From Clostridiaceae bacterium (GTDB lineage Bacteria > Bacillota > Clostridia > Saccharofermentanales > Saccharofermentanaceae): a stretch of 39,798 nt of DNA. Location of the stretch: positions 1 to 39,798 of the forward strand of contig JAAYBI010000063.1 of the NCBI GenBank assembly GCA_012718915.1, written 5' to 3'. Under the pieces are notes generated by a model that was not told the DNA's origin, made no database searches, and saw nothing but the letters and a program-made list of their open reading frames with translations. Positions 23 through 39,754 of the stretch are shown in pieces (within the stretch, counting starts at the first letter, position 1; the number at the start of each line of letters is the position of its first letter). The position numbers and the translations under genes are program-made.

Positions 23-1921
23 CTAGTAATTGACCTCTTCCGCGGATGCAGAAATTATCGGTTCCGACCCGACACTATCCTGCACAAGCTCTCCCACGAA
101 TATACTCTCAAATTCATCGCCTTCGATTTTCTCTTTCTCAAGCAATCGAGTGGCAACGGCATTCAAGATGTCCATCTTTGCTTTCAGAAGATCGATAACC
201 TCATTGTAAGCGCCATCAATGATAGCTTGAACTTCTTCATCTATCATCGCTGCGACTTTGTCGCTGTAGTTTTGAACATGGCCGTAGTCGCGACCGAGGA
301 ATACTTCATTACCGCCACCGAAAACCATATTCCGTAGTTTTTCGCTCATACCGTATTGCGTAATCATATCTCTGGCAATCCCGTTACAGTTCTGTAAATC
401 GGAGGAAGCGCCGGTGCTGATTTCACCGAGAATAATCTCCTCGGCAGCACGGCCTCCGAGGGAAACCTTGATGTTATCAACCAACTGCTTGCGTGTTGTG
501 TAATATACATCCTCGTCCGGTTTATGAGCAGTGTATCCGCCAGCTCCGCCGGCCGGAATAATAGAAACACGCTCGACACGATCGGTTTCCGATACGGACC
601 TGAGAACAATAGCATGTCCGGCTTCATGATAAGCAGTCAGACGTTTCTCCTTGTCGTTAATGATTCGACTCTTCTTCTCCGTACCGATTACCACTTTGAA
701 AACCGCTTCCGAAATATCTGTATAAATGATCTGCTTGGAACCGCGTCGTGCTGCCAATAATGCCGCTTCATTCAATAGATTGGCCAAATCCGCACCGGTA
801 AATCCGGGTGTCATCTTGGCGATTTCTTTGAGATCTACATCAGAAGCAAGCGGCTTACCCTTGGCATGCACTTGCAAAATAGCCTCTCTGCCCTTGATAT
901 CCGGGCGCATAACAACAACGCGGCGATCAAAACGTCCGGGACGAAGCAATGCAGGATCAAGAATATCCATGCGGTTCGTCGCTGCTATGACAATGACCCC
1001 TTCATTGGGTCCGAACCCATCCATCTCTACAAGAAGTTGATTCAGAGTTTGCTCTCTCTCATCATGGCCTCCACCCATACCCGCACCGCGGTGGCGTCCG
1101 ACAGCATCAATTTCATCAATAAAAATGATACAAGGCGAATTCTTCTTTGCCGTGTCAAAAAGATCGCGAACACGGCTTGCACCGACGCCGACAAACATCT
1201 CTACAAAATCAGATCCGGAAATAGAGAAAAATGGAACACCGGCCTCTCCGGCAACAGCTTTTGCAAGCAAAGTCTTACCGGTACCCGGAGCGCCAAACAA
1301 CATAATACCCCTTGGAATTTTTGCTCCGAGCTCTGAATACTTCTGCGGATTTTTAAGAAAATCGACAACCTCCGTCAGTTCTTCCTTCTCTTCATCTGCA
1401 CCGGCAACATCTGCAAACGTAACTTTATTCTTGCTCGGATCGTGCAACCTGGCCTTGCTTCTCCCAAAGCTCATCGCGCTCTTGCCGTCACTTTGACCTC
1501 GTCCGATAGATACCCAGAACACTACGCCGATCAATACCACTAAAAGGACTATACTGACCACACTCATAATACTGCTGAAATCCATTGGTTCTTTGTAATC
1601 GAAATCTTCGATTTGACCCTTCTTTTGAGCATCGATCAAAATCGACAGGACGCGATCCATCGAAGCATACGGTATTACTTTTTTGACTTCGACTGTTTTG
1701 TTTTCGGCATCCATATACTTAAACTCAAGTGAAGTACCATATAGTGTGACTTCCTCTAGTTCAAATTGCTCAGATCTTATGAGCTCCAAAGCCTCCGAAA
1801 GAGACTGCTCCTTTTTATTCGTATCATTCAAATAGAAATATGCGAAAACGAATAATACGACAAGTAAGATAATATAGAAAGGCGCACCGCCTAATCTTTT
1901 AATCGGGCTTGTTGAACTCAT
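23..1921 (-). CDS. ftsH: ATP-dependent zinc metalloprotease FtsH
   Basis: 632 aa. Two N-terminal TM segments. Walker A GAPGTGKT. Zinc-binding HEAGHA. Start overlaps the hpt stop (ATGA), the classic tilS-hpt-ftsH arrangement. Confidence 0.95.
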
Positions 1922-2472
1922 TTTTTACCTCCGTCCGGATCGAGTATACAAACATCCGGCAAATTTCTGTATCTTCCTGAATAATCGAGCCCGTACCCGA
2001 CAATAAATTCATCGGGAATGGACATGCCGACGTAATCGGCACTGATTTCAGTCTTCCGACGATCCGGTTTATCAAATGCAACACATACTCTAAGGCTCGC
2101 AGGATCCTTTGTTCTAAGTAAATCCTTAAGATTCAGAAGAGTCAGACCGGAATCGACGATATCCTCAACAATTAATACGTTCTTACCGTTAATATTAACA
2201 TCCAGGTCTTTAACAATTTTAACGATTCCGGATGTTTTAGTTCCGCCATAATAACTTGATACAGACATAAAATCAATTGTTGTCTGAACCGTAAGTTTTC
2301 GGACAAGGTCAGCCATGAAAATAAATGATCCCTTAAGTATTCCGACAACGACAATCTCTTGACCCTCGTAATCTCGATTAATCTCAGCGGCCAACCGATC
2401 AACCATCTCCTGAATCTGCGTTCTGTCAATCATGACACGCTCAACCCTATGCGTCATAGTATTCTCCTTCAT
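1918..2472 (-). CDS. hpt: hypoxanthine-guanine phosphoribosyltransferase (copy 1)
   Basis: PRPP-binding motif [14 protein letters not shown]. Ends [14 protein letters not shown]. Alternative start at 2457 (MTHRVE) has a better AAGGAG RBS. The 2472 start overlaps the tilS stop. Confidence 0.9.
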
Positions 2473-4052
2473 ACCTCGTCAGGAATAATTTTTAACTCGA
2501 ATATATTGAGATCGGAGGACTCGTCCTTTTCAATCGTACGAAAACGGCTCATGAACCGATCACACGAAATTGCGTCAACAAATCCTCTGGCATGTGCCAA
2601 TCCCGGGATCCAAACGACCTCCGATTCGATACACAAAACGAGCAATGAATTCCTGATATGGGAAGGCACTTTCATATCCGTTAAATATCGCCTTAACAAC
2701 TTTCGACCTGCTCCTCCGGCTCGGGAAAAATAATCTCCGGTACGAGGGTGACGAAGCGTTAATCCGCTTAATAACTCTGAAGTGCCAAACCATGTCAGAT
2801 TATTATAAACTACGACATCCAGATTCTCAACGCGTCGAATGTGAACAGAAATAAACATTTGAGGATCTCGAATTTCATAATGACCCTTAATGCGCAACTC
2901 GGATTCGATGGTATGAAAATCATCCAAGCGCATTTCTCCGGTTACTTTTCTATCTGAAATCAACACATGTTTGCCATTTACATTCAACGTTCTTGTCGCA
3001 GATAACGTGAATTTTTCTTGATCCAAAAAATATAATACATCATCGTCGATATGTGCTTCGCGTTTCCCCGAAATGGAAACGAGCAAATTGGATTGCCCGC
3101 TTTGAGCCATTTTGACAAGAGCGGCGATTCGATTTGATCCAAAATCTACGAGGTCTCCAAATGTAGTCTCATATAAAATTCGCAAAACTCGCGAAGACAT
3201 AGCCGGATGCAATTTAAGCCATTCCGAGCAATGAATACCCTTGACGCAATCTATCGTGTCGATGGATATCCTTTTGAAAATCGCTTGAGCTTCACGGTCC
3301 AGGTAAGCCTTATCCGATGCTAAATGTTCCGCCAACCGGCTCAAGGCTAAATCCGGAGATTTGTTTGAAACTTTTTCAATTGCAGGAAAAACGACATGTC
3401 TCCATTGGTTTCGAGTATATTCCAAATCCGCGTTTGATTCGTCAATCGAATAATTTATCTCATTATCAGAAAGATACTGAAGTATCTGATCTTTTCCGAC
3501 GAATATCAACGGACGGACAATTCTATCTTTTCTTATTCCCATGGCACACAACCCGTCCAATCCTGCACCCCGAAAAACGTTCATCATCATGGTCTCTGCA
3601 CGATCTTGACGATGATGTGCCAAAGCAATTCGAACCGTCTTACCATCTGATTCATAATCCCTTGCCAAACGCTCAAAAAAGCGGTGTCTTGCAATTCTTG
3701 CAGCATGCTCTATGCTCATTCCGGATTGCGAGGACATCAGCGGAACATCTTCAGAATCCGAAAAAAATAATATACCTCTCGCCTCACAGTACTCCCGCAC
3801 CAATCTACACTCATACTCTGATGCTTCTTTTCGAATCTGATGATTAAAATGAGCAACCGTCAAAGTATCAAAAATTGTCGCATCTTCCGGTTTATGTTGT
3901 GAAATGCGAAAAAGAAGATCTAAAAGGCACATCGAATCCGGGCCGCCGGATACAGCCGCAACAAGCACATTACAAGACAACAGATCATGCGATTTGACGA
4001 CACGAACAAACGAATCATATAGCGCCATCATTAACCTCTTCCGAGCAAACAA
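2469..4052 (-). CDS. tilS: tRNA(Ile)-lysidine synthetase
   Basis: PP-loop SGGPDSMCLL near the N-terminus. TilS C-terminal domain present. 527 aa. Confidence 0.9.
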   Translation of the reverse strand: MFARKRLMMALYDSFVRVVKSHDLLSCNVLVAAVSGGPDSMCLLDLLFRISQHKPEDATIFDTLTVAHFNHQIRKEASEYECRLVREYCEARGILFFSDSEDVPLMSSQSGMSIEHAARIARHRFFERLARDYESDGKTVRIALAHHRQDRAETMMMNVFRGAGLDGLCAMGIRKDRIVRPLIFVGKDQILQYLSDNEINYSIDESNADLEYTRNQWRHVVFPAIEKVSNKSPDLALSRLAEHLASDKAYLDREAQAIFKRISIDTIDCVKGIHCSEWLKLHPAMSSRVLRILYETTFGDLVDFGSNRIAALVKMAQSGQSNLLVSISGKREAHIDDDVLYFLDQEKFTLSATRTLNVNGKHVLISDRKVTGEMRLDDFHTIESELRIKGHYEIRDPQMFISVHIRRVENLDVVVYNNLTWFGTSELLSGLTLRHPRTGDYFSRAGGAGRKLLRRYLTDMKVPSHIRNSLLVLCIESEVVWIPGLAHARGFVDAISCDRFMSRFRTIEKDESSDLNIFELKIIPDEV

Positions 4053-19552: not shown

Positions 19553-19807
19553 CTATTTATCAACCGACTTAGTAATCATTGACTTGACAGAAATTCCCTT
19601 AACTCTACCAAGCGCACCGGTCATCGCGCTGATTTGATCATTCGTCCCATCAACAATTAACGAAATAACAGCAACATTTTTTTCGCGAAAAGGAAGACCC
19701 ATCCTCCCAACAATTCGGTCCGAAAATCGATGCAATACATCATTAACCTTCTCAACACTGTCTTTCTCCTCAATGACTATTCCAACAATAGCAATTCGAT
19801 TGTCCAT
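19553..19807 (-). CDS. small TM1266-like putative iron-only hydrogenase system regulator (ACT/NikR-C-like)
   Basis: About 85-aa protein immediately upstream of hydG in the same orientation. Real start is the ATG at 19807 (MDNRIAIVGIV) behind a GGAGGG RBS. Confidence 0.55.
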   Translation of the reverse strand: MDNRIAIVGIVIEEKDSVEKVNDVLHRFSDRIVGRMGLPFREKNVAVISLIVDGTNDQISAMTGALGRVKGISVKSMITKSVDK

Positions 19808-19984
19808 AATACCCTCCAACAAAAAATCCCCGCCCGCAAAAGCAGACGAGGATCAAAACGCACAAGCAAGGAACCGAAAATCGGTTCATAGACTTCCCGC
19901 TCAGAAAACTGCTTCACGGTTAGAAAAAATAGTACATACGATTGCACTCCGAGAGAAGAACTCAGGCAACACAAGCGCAAAAAG

Positions 19985-20014
19985 ATAATACCATAACAAT
20001 CTTCGCCTTATCAA
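19985..20014 (-). promoter_or_regulatory. candidate promoter (TTGATA-18-TATTAT) of the hyd maturation operon, followed by a ~170-nt leader containing a perfect 7-bp hairpin GAACCGA-AAA-TCGGTTC (19871-19887)
   Basis: Boxes read on the minus strand. There is a long untranslated leader before the regulator gene. Confidence 0.3.
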
Positions 20015-20061
20015 GCAAAGACGAATTAAAGATATCATGATTTCTGATTTGCACAAATATA

Positions 20062-20099
20062 CAGACAAACAAAAACAGCGACGGAGACCCGTCGCTGTT
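20062..20099 (-). terminator. rho-independent terminator of rpmE (11-bp stem AACAGCGACGG/CCGTCGCTGTT, then TTTTTGTTTGT on the minus strand)
   Basis: Perfect inverted repeat plus T-run, 55 nt after the rpmE stop. Confidence 0.8.
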
Positions 20100-20153
20100 A
20101 GATGACTTCTTGTCGCGTTTCGGCCAATTAAGGCCTCACATTCAAAAAAAGAA

Positions 20154-20354
20154 TTACTTTTGTTCCATTCTCTTCTTGAACTTATCAACACGTCCGCCGG
20201 TATCGATAAGCTTCTGCTTGCCGGTATAGAACGGGTGACACTTCGAGCAAATGTCAACACTGTAGCTCGCGCTGGTTGATGTCGTCTCAAAAGACTCGCC
20301 ACAGGCGCACTTCACAGTAACTTTCTCTGTCTTGGGATGGATGCCCTCTTTCAT
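20154..20354 (-). CDS. rpmE: 50S ribosomal protein L31
   Basis: [19 protein letters not shown]...[24 protein letters not shown]. The listed ORF has a spurious 20-codon 5' extension. Confidence 0.92.
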
Positions 20355-32143: not shown

Positions 32144-32219
32144 GCCGATTTAGCTCAGTTGGTAGAGCAGCTGATTTGTAATCAGCAGGTCGTCAGTTCG
32201 AGTCTGACAATCGGCTCCA
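32144..32219 (+). tRNA. tRNA-Thr (anticodon UGU), CCA encoded
   Basis: Cloverleaf: acceptor GCCGATT/AATCGGC, D-arm GCTC...GAGC, anticodon stem GCTGA/TCAGC with loop TTTGTAA, T-arm GTCAG TTCGAGT CTGAC, discriminator T, CCA. Confidence 0.85.
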
Positions 32220-36296: not shown

Positions 36297-36854
36297 CTAT
36301 TTCCGAAGATCTTCCAACAATTTTTCGGCCTGCAGCCTAATGAGTATTGATCTGTCTGCCAGAATGATGATTTTCAGTGAAGCAGATAAACGATGTTTTG
36401 CTCCGGGGATGATCTCAACATAGTGTTGTGTTACTTCGTTTATGCATTGATCAAGCATTTCATCATCAACCTGGACGCCTGAAGCACATCGATTAACCAG
36501 CAGACAGATGTACTCATATAGCTGCGACTCCGGTATGATGTCATCCGAGCTGTCATACACAGATCCGTTAACATACGACAGAAGAAACGCAATTTGCTCT
36601 AACTGAAAAGCAGCTCGAAGCATATTTATAATCAGAATTCTGGCGACCTGATCAATATTGTATCCTCTGTTGACCGGCGGACTGACCCATCCTCGCTTGA
36701 CCCAGTTTTGAAGCGCCGAAGCATCTAGTCCCGTCATTTCACGAATCTGTGACAACTTCATACTCGACGTTGCGGCAAAAATACCATTCAAAAAACCCAC
36801 ACCGGGTATATTCTGTTCTCTTCTTGCCGGTATTGTCGTGCCCGGAATTGTCAT
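36297..36854 (-). CDS. second DUF1836-like / MerR-like HTH protein
   Basis: MTGLDASALQNWVKRGWVSPPVNRGYNIDQVARILIINMLRAAFQLEQI parallels the DUF1836 motif of the 12475-13104 gene and a MerR-type HTH. Real start is the ATG at 36854 after AAGGAGGT. Confidence 0.4.
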   Translation of the reverse strand: MTIPGTTIPARREQNIPGVGFLNGIFAATSSMKLSQIREMTGLDASALQNWVKRGWVSPPVNRGYNIDQVARILIINMLRAAFQLEQIAFLLSYVNGSVYDSSDDIIPESQLYEYICLLVNRCASGVQVDDEMLDQCINEVTQHYVEIIPGAKHRLSASLKIIILADRSILIRLQAEKLLEDLRK

Positions 36855-37048
36855 AATGTACCTCCTTTCGAACTTCATGGTCATATATTACCATGCGTTC
36901 ACATGAACGTCAATAGCATTCTTGAGAACTTTTTTTGTAATCCGTTGAACTCGCACCCGGTTCCTTTGAACCTTATCCCCTAATCACAAATTGTAAAAAA
37001 TTTTGAGAGGCGCAAACATAGCGCCTCTCAATAAAATCGGTAATACGC

Positions 37049-38020
37049 TTATATCGGCATCGAATAATCATCTACATAACCAAGAATGTCATCCTCATCC
37101 ATCTGTACCTCAACAGCGGCATCCTTAACTTTTTTGGGAACTTCAATCTCATCGACTTTATTGACTGAGCTAAATGCGACAGTAACCATCGCCGTCTTAA
37201 CGTCAAATTTGATATTCATATTTTGCATTGAACCTTCACCAGCCGACATCGAGTCTTCGTAAATTGCCATGACATCCTTCATGACACTGGTAAGCATACC
37301 GGCAAAATCAATCTCTATATATGCCGGCAAAGAAGACTTCTTGTCAATCCAGATTGTGACTTCTGCTTCATAGTCTTCTAAATCTATGCCTTCGTCTGCT
37401 AAGGACTCAAGCATCTCTTCGATGTCTTCAACAGAAACATCAAGATCAGATTCCTTGATTGCGTCGATGAGCATCATGCCATCAATGTTGCCCTTTAATA
37501 CGTAAGCATCACTTTTGTTCACTTTCTCGAGCTTTTTCTCAAGTTCAAATTCATCAGCATAATCAGACAACAAAATCATAAACTCTTCGGGAGTGAACTT
37601 CTCCAGAATTTTTGACACATCGTCATAATCGTCATCCTCGATAAGCACCTGCGCCCACTCCGACCCATCTGAAGCATAAACGGTATATGAATCTTTCTCA
37701 TTTATCGCATACATTTCAAAATCAAACTTCTCAGAACCCTGCATCGGAATCTGAACATCCATGTCACCTGACAAATGAATAGCGTCTTCAGTGACTTCGG
37801 CATTCATTTCCGCAGCAAGTTCGATTCCAAGCGAAACCGTGTCCACTTCAATTGACATATCCAAATCGAATATCATTTCCGATTCAAAAGAATCGACTTT
37901 ACTGAGTGCCTTCTCAGAATCTTTAAATAAGGAATCGACTGTCGCCTTCTTCCCGCATGCTGTAACAGGAACAAGCATAGCAATCATTAACACTATGCAG
38001 AGAATTTTCTTTTTCATCAT
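37049..38020 (-). CDS. putative acidic lipoprotein (unknown function)
   Basis: Signal peptide MMKKKILCIVLMIAMLVPVTAC with a lipobox Cys. Very Asp/Glu-rich mature protein. GGAGGG RBS. The tool start was a TTG at 38032. Confidence 0.55.
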   Translation of the reverse strand: MMKKKILCIVLMIAMLVPVTACGKKATVDSLFKDSEKALSKVDSFESEMIFDLDMSIEVDTVSLGIELAAEMNAEVTEDAIHLSGDMDVQIPMQGSEKFDFEMYAINEKDSYTVYASDGSEWAQVLIEDDDYDDVSKILEKFTPEEFMILLSDYADEFELEKKLEKVNKSDAYVLKGNIDGMMLIDAIKESDLDVSVEDIEEMLESLADEGIDLEDYEAEVTIWIDKKSSLPAYIEIDFAGMLTSVMKDVMAIYEDSMSAGEGSMQNMNIKFDVKTAMVTVAFSSVNKVDEIEVPKKVKDAAVEVQMDEDDILGYVDDYSMPI

Positions 38021-38207
38021 ATAACCCTCCAATATAAAGATAAATTAGATACTAAGACTTATTATAACTTTAATTGATGAGTGACTCAATAGAATCCAAC
38101 TCGCTTAGACAATAGATATTTTCACGTTTCAAATATGTTATAATTTTATGTAGTGGAATTTGTAGCTTTTTCACAATCTGCTTTCACCCAAAAAGGGAGG
38201 AAATTTT

Positions 38208-39179
38208 TTGTCTATAATCACTATTTCCCGTCAAATGGGTAGCCTCGGAGACGAAATTGCGCAAGCCCTTTCAAGTAGAACAGATGCCGAATTAATTACT
38301 CGGAACGAATTAATTCATCGCTTTTTCGAAAAGGTCACTGACTTTAGAGAAAAACATATGCTCAAAGAAAGCGCGAAGTTTTTTCTTACTGAAAATCGAC
38401 ACGTCGGGCAATATAAAGCGTATCTGGAAAACGAACTTATGCAGATGGCCACGAAGAAATCGTACATCTTGAAAGGATTTGGATCTCAAGTCATTTTCTC
38501 AGATTATGCGGACGCCGTTCATATCAGAATTATCGCTCCCGAGTCAGAGCGAATCGCTCGAATTCGAAGGCAGTATAAAGTATCTGATCAAGAGGCTGAA
38601 CAGATTTTGGCTACTGCGGACAAGAAACACAAGCGGTTTGTTTCAACTTTATATAATGTTGATATCACTGACACTTCACTTTACCATCTCATTCTCAACA
38701 CCGCAAAAGCCGACGTTGATGAATGTGTTGCCTCTATTCTTGCGCTCGCCGACTCTCACGCTGTGAAAATTAGGCTAAGCCAAGAAAGCAAGGCTCAAGA
38801 AGCGATCGATCATCAGACTATATTTTCCGATTTCAAAAATCCTTCCGAAGCTGAGTTTGCTCGTGTTCTCGATATGTATCATATCGATTGGAAGTATGAA
38901 CCAAAAACCTTTCCGGTCGAGTGGGATGCCGAGGGCAATGTAACTATGGCCTTCAGTCCGGACTTCTATTTGCCAAAATTTGACACTTATCTTGAACTTA
39001 CTACTATGAATCAGAAATACGTCACTGCTAAAAACCGCAAACTAAAAAAAGTTCGCGAATTGTATCCCGGAACAAACGTCCGGATAGTGTACAAAAAAGA
39101 CTTCATGTCTTTGATAGAACGCTTCAAAATGTTTGGCAATGATTTTTCGGCCGAAGCTAACGACGAATCAAAAACCTAA
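38208..39179 (+). CDS. fusion protein: cytidylate-kinase-like family (P-loop NMP-kinase-like) N-domain + C-terminal DUF559/Vsr-like restriction-endonuclease-fold domain
   Basis: N-terminus MSIITISRQMGSLGDEIAQALS is typical of the Cytidylate_kin2 family. C-terminal 120 aa SEAEFARVLDMYHIDWKYE...FSPDFYLPKFDTYLELTT...NRKLKKVRELYPGTNVRIVYKKDF follows the DUF559/Vsr topology, but the usual D/H catalytic residues are not evident. TTG start with AAAAGGGAGG RBS. Confidence 0.55.
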   Translation: MSIITISRQMGSLGDEIAQALSSRTDAELITRNELIHRFFEKVTDFREKHMLKESAKFFLTENRHVGQYKAYLENELMQMATKKSYILKGFGSQVIFSDYADAVHIRIIAPESERIARIRRQYKVSDQEAEQILATADKKHKRFVSTLYNVDITDTSLYHLILNTAKADVDECVASILALADSHAVKIRLSQESKAQEAIDHQTIFSDFKNPSEAEFARVLDMYHIDWKYEPKTFPVEWDAEGNVTMAFSPDFYLPKFDTYLELTTMNQKYVTAKNRKLKKVRELYPGTNVRIVYKKDFMSLIERFKMFGNDFSAEANDESKT

Positions 39180-39208
39180 TTCATACATATTGAAAGGATC
39201 ATAATCTG

Positions 39209-39754
39209 ATGAAAGATCTTCATGTCAAACGCATCCTTATTACAGAGGAACAAATTGCGGAGCGAACAGTAGCGATTGGCAAGCAAATCTCTCAAGATTA
39301 CGCCGATAAAGATTTGGTTTTGATTGCTGTGCTGAAAGGATCCATGTATTTCTTTTCTGATTTGACACGTCAAATTGATTTACCCATCGGAATTGATATG
39401 ATTGCCATCGGCAGCATCCCGGATACGACCAGCCAAACCGGAATTGTAAGGATTACGAAAGATCTCGACCTAAATATTACAGGAAAGCACGTATTAGTTG
39501 TAGAGGATATCATCCGCACCGGACTGACAACGGCATATCTTATCCAAAATCTCGAGGCTCGTAAGCCACTTTCCGTCGGAGTATGCACACTGCTTTACAA
39601 TCCGGACCGTCTTCTCATCAACGTACCAATTTCATATTATGGCTTCGAAATTAGCAGGTCCTGGCTCGTAGGATACGGCATGGACATCGACGAGAAATTT
39701 CGAAACCTTCCATACATAGCAGAATTGGAACGGCGCACCAAAATTGATGACTGA
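39209..39754 (+). CDS. hypoxanthine/guanine phosphoribosyltransferase paralog (copy 2)
   Basis: PRPP motif VLVVEDIIRTGLT. Co-linear similarity to the hpt at 1918-2472 but divergent. 30 nt downstream of the kinase-nuclease-fold gene on the same strand. Confidence 0.8.
   Translation: MKDLHVKRILITEEQIAERTVAIGKQISQDYADKDLVLIAVLKGSMYFFSDLTRQIDLPIGIDMIAIGSIPDTTSQTGIVRITKDLDLNITGKHVLVVEDIIRTGLTTAYLIQNLEARKPLSVGVCTLLYNPDRLLINVPISYYGFEISRSWLVGYGMDIDEKFRNLPYIAELERRTKIDD

Follow-up and report, generated by a model that had tools for sequence, protein, structure and literature searches.

Two neighbouring genes on a 39,798-nt stretch of DNA from a Clostridiaceae bacterium (GCA_012718915.1, contig JAAYBI010000063.1; the whole stretch is called the window hereafter) encode a protein with a cytidylate kinase-like (CK-like) and a nuclease-fold domain and a relative of hypoxanthine phosphoribosyltransferase (HPRT). 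The first open reading frame (ORF; 38208–39179, plus strand) starts with TTG and encodes a protein of 323 amino acids (aa), referred to here as CK-NucL, NucL being its nuclease-fold domain. The second (39209–39754, plus strand) starts with ATG, encodes 181 aa and is separated from the first by a spacer of 29 nt. The pairing of NucL with an HPRT-family protein constitutes a real and conserved module that is apparently undescribed: no description of it was found in the literature on PF13189, on HPRT–nuclease fusions or on inactive bacterial HPRT paralogues. An earlier note on this DNA had recognized the fusion of a CK-like protein to a C-terminal domain at 38208, a divergent second HPRT copy just downstream of it and a housekeeping hpt in a tilS-hpt-ftsH operon at the other end of the window, and all three were confirmed.

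Residues 3–166 of CK-NucL match the Pfam family Cytidylate_kin2 (PF13189) well above its gathering threshold (E = 1e-27, 97.7 bits vs a cut-off of 28). Stand-alone PF13189 proteins have about 200 aa (201 aa for PDB 3fdi, 223 aa for 3hdt and 200 aa for a protein of Ruminococcus albus), so that the C-terminal extension of the window protein is real. Structures of two PF13189 proteins have been solved since 2009; these structural-genomics proteins (3fdi and 3hdt) stand alone, whereas the window domain is joined to NucL by a helix (residues 170–196 in the AlphaFold model) that spans into the linker. The window domain has the same fold as these two proteins and the same Lys-less G-S-x-G loop: after strand 1, its SRQMGSLGDE aligns with GREFGSGGH of 3fdi and EREYGSGGR of 3hdt. 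The Walker-A motif GxxGxGK[ST] is absent, as the loop (GSLGDE) has neither the Lys nor the Ser/Thr, and the whole PF13189 family accordingly lacks GK[S/T]. The domain also fails the (d)CMP-kinase equivalog TIGR02173 (40.9 bits vs a cut-off of 102.1), and a profile search of PDB retrieved no CMP kinase for it. By the tests run, it would therefore not be a CMP kinase, and "kinase-like" should probably be understood as a fold and not as evidence of chemistry. The R. albus protein is encoded at 19574–20176 of pRUMAL02 of strain 7 (L088) and is 27% identical to the window N-terminal domain; its gene sits between those of an SLC13 permease and a TrkG potassium transporter, which indicates that PF13189 occurs in unrelated contexts.

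NucL (about 100 aa) is the most conserved portion of the protein. Homologues match the window sequence at a mean identity of 84% in this domain (a value that holds across orders), vs 54% in the CK-like part and 24% in the linker. NucL scores below threshold with every Pfam and NCBIfam model, the sole Pfam signal being a weak one for DUF790/Bax1 (E = 1e-3, 17.9 bits vs a cut-off of 28.8). In structural comparison, it takes the restriction-endonuclease fold, and its neighbours include T7 endonuclease I, Bax1, DUF559 and Vsr. A nuclease fold is thus present in the C-terminal region, as the earlier note had expected; the DUF559/Vsr topology that it had assigned stands at the level of the fold, where both are near structural neighbours, and falls at the level of the family. 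DUF559/Vsr gave no match to the window protein in the Pfam scan at E ≤ 1 and none to 150 NucL representatives at E ≤ 0.01, and neither T7 endonuclease I nor Bax1 is any more distant. Membership in DUF559/Vsr was therefore rejected and these proteins were kept as fold neighbours. Vsr itself (PDB 1cw0) shares the restriction-endonuclease fold with NucL and differs from it by His residues that NucL does not have. Likewise, Bax1 (DUF790, PDB 6p4w/8gy8) has the XPB helicase as a partner whereas none lies near NucL, and the DUF790 model does not reach its threshold, so that NucL does not belong to this family either.

The scan of the 150 representatives gave 34 sub-threshold matches to Phage_endo_I (PF05367), vs three to DUF790 and none to DUF559. 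The best PF05367 match among relatives has an E-value of 3.2e-5 and about 20 bits (gathering threshold, 29.1 bits); the window protein itself has no match to this model in the Pfam scan. PHROGs profiles of Holliday-junction resolvases and endonucleases match NucL at E-values of 6e-7 to 2e-6, and endonuclease I proteins stand near the top of its BFVD ranking. The sole nuclease in PDB reached by the NucL sequence profile is T7 endonuclease I (3cae, E = 0.07–0.28). In this alignment, "YE", "tPDF(L/Y)LP", the Glu of ExK, a basic helix and the strand "(Y/H)P..i.I(V/L)" are all in register. Taken as a whole, these comparisons make T7 endonuclease I the nearest sequence family of NucL, which itself qualifies for none of PF05367, DUF790 and DUF559.

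Conservation was assessed in 150 clusters at 50% identity. Three acidic residues are invariant, namely E214 (147/147 clusters), E231 (149/149) and E263 (150/150), as is P251-D252-F253 (150/150); Q269, K275 and K278 are also invariant family-wide. In the alignment with T7 endonuclease I, D252 pairs with D55 and E263 with E65, both in register, and the helix carrying K275 and K278 has a basic counterpart in that enzyme. E214 lies one residue before the printed alignment; from the helix register and the T7 sequence, it is assigned to E20. With this assignment, the acidic triad E20/D55/E65 of the phage enzyme is matched by E214/D252/E263. The statement of the earlier note that catalytic residues were "not obvious" is thus to be corrected: the E...PD...E triad is invariant and just the Lys is missing. 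The counterpart of the catalytic K67 is absent, the canonical Lys position (Glu+2) being occupied by T265 in 149 of the 150 clusters. T7 endonuclease I (PF05367), a PD-(D/E)xK nuclease that resolves four-way junctions as a domain-swapped homodimer with composite active sites, has in common with NucL a small alpha-beta-beta-beta-alpha-beta core. It differs from NucL in being phage-borne and in having K67, whereas NucL is cellular, has an invariant Thr, nearly always comes with HPRT and in most cases has a sensor-like domain at its N-terminus. The possibility that NucL is the missing Holliday-junction resolvase of these Clostridia was set aside, as it leaves the HPRT coupling unexplained and the Lys is absent.

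The product of the downstream gene scores above the cut-off of TIGR01203, the NCBIfam equivalog for HGPRTase (170.8 bits vs 150), and aligns with the solved HGPRT 1r3u/2geb at E = 1.5e-50; human PRTFDC1 (PDB 2jbh), a degenerate HPRT paralogue that lacks the catalytic Asp like the window partner, is also among its PDB matches. The HMMER alignment to 1r3u/2geb reveals three replaced motifs, EDIIDSG being changed to EDIIRTG, LDKPER to LYNPDR and SSYG to GSIP. Seventy-nine Clostridial partners were aligned with canonical HPRTs and are described here in human numbering; the references included the human and E. coli sequences, and the substitutions were independently confirmed by the 1r3u/2geb alignment. 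The residues that contact ribose-phosphate, pyrophosphate (PPi) and Mg (K68, G69, E133, D134, T138, G139, T141, D193 and R199) are kept in the window protein and retained in at least 69 of the 79 paralogues. The window protein carries the substitutions D137R, K165N, R169L, F186W and Y104I. Among the 79 partners, the catalytic Asp at position 137 is replaced by Arg in 77, and the canonical Lys at position 165 by Asn in 65, Ser in 10 and Cys in three; Arg169 is replaced by Gln or Leu, Phe186 by Trp or Arg, and Tyr104 mostly by Ile. The partner therefore belongs to the HPRT family by profile and lacks both the catalytic Asp137 and the Lys165 that specifies 6-oxo purines. It shares with canonical HPRTs (Thermoanaerobacter 1r3u, B. 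anthracis Hpt-1 6d9s) an intact loop III for phosphoribosyl pyrophosphate (PRPP), loop I, D193 and R199; it differs by its five substitutions and by its obligate coupling to a nuclease-fold protein. The residues retained here are those that, in B. anthracis Hpt-1, hold the ribose and phosphates of PRPP and (p)ppGpp; guanine is held by Lys131 and Phe152, and both ligands shift the enzyme between dimer and tetramer (PMC6783271).

The window also contains a canonical hpt, on the minus strand between ftsH (23–1921; Peptidase_M41 and AAA domains) and tilS (2469–4052; ATP_bind_3 and TilS_C domains), the tilS-hpt-ftsH operon thus extending over 23–4052. Every catalytic residue of this housekeeping HPRT is canonical, Asp137 included, and it shares 38% identity with the linked copy, which could probably dispense with catalysis because the housekeeping enzyme was present. 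The D137R copy at 39209–39754, which still passes the HGPRTase equivalog, constitutes an annotation hazard. Similar cases are the fusion gene of Thermomicrobium roseum described below (L081:3944-4945; Asp137 replaced by Asn), which carries the annotation "hpt", and P0172, a stand-alone NucL of 122 aa named "hypoxanthine phosphoribosyltransferase" by JGI.

CK-NucL has over 1,000 full-length homologues (301–356 aa), and at least 582 species had a relative when a single genome was scanned for each GTDB species. The carriers among the matches listed are mostly Oscillospiraceae, Christensenellales, Saccharofermentans, Mageeibacillus and relatives. An HPRT-like gene lies directly downstream on the same strand in all 78 fetched loci that have room downstream; these genes show 50–75% identity and are mostly 20–50 nt away. 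When the ORFs of 81 loci were clustered, conservation was limited to the CK-NucL and HPRT-like genes (76 and 70 loci), the next commonest family being found in 20 loci, on the opposite strand and confined to sub-clades. Genes for radical-SAM proteins, Pol IV and response regulators were for this reason rejected as partners (at most 20 loci, opposite strand, sub-clades). Divergence of the one gene goes along with that of the other (r = 0.56, p ~ 1e-7), and both have a native GC content (41–43%, vs 44% for the window). As the number of full-length homologues and the conservation in 78/78 loci indicate, the pairing is well beyond chance. Co-occurrence of the two genes in other genomes, on which the earlier note had made its proposal of a functional link depend, is hence found throughout, and fusions in other phyla point in the same direction. 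The pair cannot be called unusual in the sense of rare, as that note had it: at least 582 species have it as a fixed operon, and the link between NucL and HPRT extends over several phyla.

An exhaustive HMMER search with NucL alone retrieved 1,586 clusters at 50% identity, 807 of them with E ≤ 1e-10. A protein search of plasmids returned a T. roseum gene annotated hpt (WP_012643103.1), whose product has an N-terminal part of 110 residues that is 46% identical to the window NucL (E = 3e-28) and a C-terminal part that is HPRT. This protein is a Rosetta-stone fusion of the two partners. The same NucL-HPRT fusion is found in P0151, CK-like-NucL-HPRT triple fusions are found in P0139 and P0185, and GAF-NucL-HPRT proteins in P0214 and P0250 (named Dehalococcoidia or Chloroflexota). 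Further architectures are CK-like-NucL, NucL alone (120–190 aa) and divergent-CK-like-NucL. Two proteins that seem to combine NucL with an unknown C-terminus (P0243 and P0256) were not counted as new architectures, as they are probably frameshifted: their tails are of low complexity and rich in Arg, Ser and Thr, and they come from high-GC long-read assemblies (L083, 74% GC; L087, 68% GC).

Eight of the ten sampled non-Clostridial lineages have an adjacent HPRT gene. A phosphoribosyltransferase (PRT) gene directly follows a stand-alone or CK-fused NucL gene in L082, L084/85, L086, L090, L091/92 and L093 (Armatimonadota and others). In these loci, the two genes are spaced by -4 to +126 nt, with a 4-nt overlap in three of the pairs that implies translational coupling. 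In the high-GC locus L083, HPRT fragments lie about 1.3 kb from NucL; this locus is syntenic with an actinobacterial Rv1828_C/BFN_dom/GcvP region, which suggests that NucL is also present in Actinobacteria. Outside Clostridia, Asp137 and the other residues are canonical in all six adjacent partners that were sampled and in both GAF fusions. Loss of Asp137 is confined to the Clostridial clade (Arg), T. roseum and P0151 (Asn) and the triple fusions (Cys or Arg), whose HPRT-like part has decayed further (D134G, T141E). The constant core of the module is therefore NucL plus an HPRT-family protein, its N-terminal domain being optional and interchangeable. The simplest history is that NucL was ancestrally associated with a working HPRT and that, where a second hpt exists, the linked copy lost catalysis and kept its phosphate pocket.

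Some genes close to these loci deserve mention. A divergent gene of the purine-nucleoside-phosphorylase family (PNP_UDP_1) lies upstream of the NucL-HPRT pair of L090 (L090:1258-2145), and genes for an adenosine-specific kinase domain protein, NDK and formate-tetrahydrofolate ligase lie beside that of L086 (L086:214-708 and L086:5414-7559). The mutM (Fpg) gene of T. roseum faces the fusion gene in convergent orientation, the two overlapping at the 3' end of the latter (L081:4876-5790). An HhH-GPD glycosylase gene (L089:2670-3637) is located 1.5 kb from an orphan NucL gene without HPRT nearby. The presence of DNA glycosylase genes near NucL in these two lineages may be a coincidence or a hint at base-excision repair.

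The features of the Clostridial operon and of the housekeeping hpt are collected in Table 1. The CK-NucL and HPRT-like genes are probably co-transcribed, since no terminator-like site was found on the plus strand between them, and the extended -10 element would act as the promoter of the operon. When the upstream regions of 79 loci were scanned by k-mers, elements of TGnTATAAT type and Shine-Dalgarno sites were the only motifs to recur, so that the operon promoters appear to be of sigma-A/housekeeping type; no operator-like conserved motif was found upstream of the operon in these 79 loci. Shine-Dalgarno sites of AAGGAGG/GGGGG type occupy the equivalent position in related loci. An Rfam search of the leader gave no family at the gathering threshold in the whole window and none at E ≤ 1 in 38000–38260; together with the k-mer scan, this ruled out a riboswitch or leader RNA 5' of the operon. 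The CK-NucL gene often begins with TTG or GTG (window, L056, L002, L004, L006, L012, L001, L005 and L011), which suggests a deliberately low translation relative to the ATG-started partner. In the AlphaFold model, residues 310–323 of CK-NucL have a pLDDT below 50.

Table 1. Position of the features of the CK-NucL/HPRT-like operon and of the housekeeping hpt in the window.
Feature	Coordinates	Strand	Remarks
Extended -10 promoter element TGtTATAAT (putative)	38136–38144	+	About 64 nt 5' of the start codon; read from the sequence
Shine-Dalgarno GGGAGG	38195–38200	+	7 nt ahead of the TTG start; read from the sequence
CK-like domain, residues 1–185	38208–38762	+	PF13189 P-loop-kinase fold with Lys-less loop SRQMGSLGDE; nucleotide sensing is proposed
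Linker, residues 186–208	38763–38831	+	End of the long helix plus variable segment
NucL domain, residues 209–305	38832–39122	+	Restriction-endonuclease (PD-(D/E)xK) fold
C-terminal tail, residues 306–323, and TAA stop	39123–39179	+	Variable, low-confidence; not conserved in the alignment
Shine-Dalgarno GAAAGGA of the HPRT-like gene	39192–39198	+	Within the 29-nt spacer, 10 nt ahead of the ATG
HPRT-family partner, 181 aa	39209–39754	+	TIGR01203 and alignment to 1r3u/2geb
Housekeeping hpt, 184 aa	1918–2472	-	Pfam Pribosyltran, E = 6e-33; tilS-hpt-ftsH operon

Divergently upstream of the operon (36297–38032, minus strand) are a DUF6612 lipoprotein-like gene (327 aa) and a DUF1836/MerR-HTH gene (195 aa), with an SPFH/Band-7 gene farther out. 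The DUF6612 gene recurs in just three other loci and was hence left outside the module. The sole Rfam match in the window is a tRNA gene (32144–32216, plus strand, 74.6 bits) that is flanked by an alpha-amylase-family gene and an NlpC/P60 peptidoglycan hydrolase gene.

The lifestyle of the module also has to be considered. The best matches of CK-NucL to PADLOC-DB v2 defence models (E = 2.7e-4 to 3.6e-4) correspond to generic fold segments and do not qualify, and the HPRT-like protein has no match in this database. No relatives of the module were found on IMG/VR viral contigs, and the plasmid search found none except on a 918-kb Thermomicrobium replicon, the T. roseum megaplasmid. With the native GC content, these searches led to the rejection of a defence or mobile-element origin; the module looks housekeeping or regulatory, not defensive.

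The reading that we favour, with a confidence that stops somewhat short of even, is that the module is a nucleotide-gated complex acting on nucleic acids, in which the HPRT(-like) and the CK-like or GAF parts would do the sensing. The unit would be a two-protein complex in Clostridia and, in some members of other phyla, a single fused protein. NucL would be the effector: it would bind nucleic acid, and probably cleave it, through a metal site made up of E214, D252 and E263, since the invariance of this metal-binding triad across phyla is hard to explain otherwise. The HPRT-family partner would be a ligand-responsive oligomeric subunit that reports purine status, PRPP, IMP/GMP or (p)ppGpp binding to the retained ribose-phosphate/PPi pocket; its dimer or tetramer state would set the assembly of the NucL domains. 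Nucleases of the T7 endonuclease I type need to be dimeric, as their active sites are built across the dimer. The CK-like domain, with its Lys-less P-loop fold, would be a second and swappable nucleotide sensor, as GAF, known as a typical sensor of small molecules, holds the equivalent position in Dehalococcoidia and the kinase hallmarks are absent. The linked Clostridial copy (D137R, K165N) would have been reduced to a sensor or scaffold, a separate housekeeping hpt being present.

For a role of the partner as a sensor speaks the fact that it keeps its ribose-phosphate, PPi and Mg contacts and loses only residues for the base and for catalysis. PurR provides a precedent for a PRT fold that serves as a sensor of PRPP and (p)ppGpp (PMC8789054). 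Four points weigh on the other side. Similarity of NucL to characterized nucleases is sub-threshold throughout (Pfam; E = 0.07–0.28 in PDB). K67 is essential in T7 endonuclease I, and with an invariant Thr in place of the catalytic Lys, NucL may bind without cutting. The NucL genes of L087 and L089 have no HPRT nearby. Lastly, ligand binding may have been lost in the triple fusions, to judge from their residues, which would leave a scaffold role. A more specific version of the favoured reading is doubtful: a cross-phyla regulatory nuclease in which an HPRT or pseudo-HPRT oligomeric switch, set to dimer or tetramer by PRPP as opposed to (p)ppGpp or purine nucleotides, would assemble or take apart composite T7-endonuclease-I-like active sites, purine or alarmone status being converted into cleavage of a specific DNA or RNA target and the CK-like domain receiving a first role, that of a nucleotide-sensing pseudokinase.

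Other explanations give a different weight to the same data. If NucL were a former nuclease that only binds DNA or RNA, the module would be a non-catalytic regulator of the PurR/PyrR type: its HPRT(-like) and CK-like or GAF parts would sense purine nucleotides, PRPP or an alarmone, and it would control the transcription or the mRNA fate of purine or nucleotide genes. This is rather unlikely, as E214/D252/E263 would not be expected to remain invariant in 150 clusters in a domain that binds no metal, as no operator-like conserved motif lies upstream of the operon and as the module has no consistent linkage to purine operons. The resemblance to PurR and PyrR of Bacillus, in which a PRT-fold sensor is joined to nucleic-acid binding, is one of design only. 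The sensor of PurR is a PRT fold without catalytic activity (PMC8789054), and the part that binds nucleic acid is a winged helix without homology to NucL. The salvage or modification pathway raised by the earlier note would have an HPRT-like enzyme joining an unusual base (neither hypoxanthine nor guanine) to PRPP, a CK-like domain phosphorylating the resulting nucleoside monophosphate (NMP) and NucL supplying or processing material derived from nucleic acids. A PRTase followed by an NMP kinase is a natural two-step order, the PRPP residues are intact, the partner is a fully canonical HPRT in other phyla and purine-metabolism genes adjoin the pair in L086 and L090. Moreover, the base pocket has changed coherently and not by random decay (R137 in 77/79; N/S/C at 165; W/R at 186). 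However, PF13189 has neither the Walker-A Lys nor the Ser/Thr and the CMP-kinase equivalog failed; the general acid/base Asp137 and the base-specifying Lys165 are lost, a GAF sensor can stand in for the "kinase", the triple fusions have lost ribose-binding residues and a small endonuclease-type domain yields no free bases. A plain salvage pathway is therefore improbable.

The degenerate HPRT copy could instead be a pseudo-enzyme that forms mixed oligomers with the housekeeping HPRT and tunes salvage, NucL and the CK-like domain being accessory inputs. Dead paralogues that regulate active sisters are well known, and both HPRT copies are present in the window. Ligand binding by HPRTs, which are obligately oligomeric, is controlled by their interfaces (PMC6783271). 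Since the two copies are only 38% identical, the compatibility of their interfaces is uncertain; this explanation, which is quite improbable, accounts neither for NucL being the most conserved part nor for its coupling in other phyla to a canonical and probably sole-acting HPRT. More improbable still is a role in anti-phage defence or as a toxin-antitoxin system, another suggestion of the earlier note, in which NucL would be a toxic nuclease restrained or triggered by its nucleotide-binding partners. Such a role fits poorly with PADLOC matches that are far from significant and limited to generic fold segments, with searches of viral contigs and plasmids that were negative bar the T. roseum megaplasmid, with an 84% identity of NucL across orders, unlike fast-evolving defence genes, with the presence of the module in at least 582 species, its gene order being fixed, with the native GC content and housekeeping-type promoters and with an ancestral partner that is a normal metabolic HPRT. 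The likeness to ligand-gated PD-(D/E)xK effectors such as Cap4, Can2 and NucC is likewise one of design only, as the window module has neither a CARF/SAVED sensor nor a defence context.

NucL thus constitutes a large family for which no model exists and which is near-obligately coupled to HPRT in Bacillota, Chloroflexota/Thermomicrobia, Armatimonadota and others. A linkage as strong as this one usually marks a real physical and functional partnership, and specialists would not expect an HPRT to be coupled, across phyla, with a domain of nuclease fold. For annotation, the consequence is a systematic error, as the Clostridial partner without catalytic Asp will be named hpt. The module also gives a first functional handle on the PF13189 "cytidylate kinase-like" proteins. 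Its carriers are abundant among gut and rumen Oscillospirales and Christensenellales, whose purine metabolism is of practical interest, and it points to a link of purine salvage or alarmone sensing with nucleic-acid processing.

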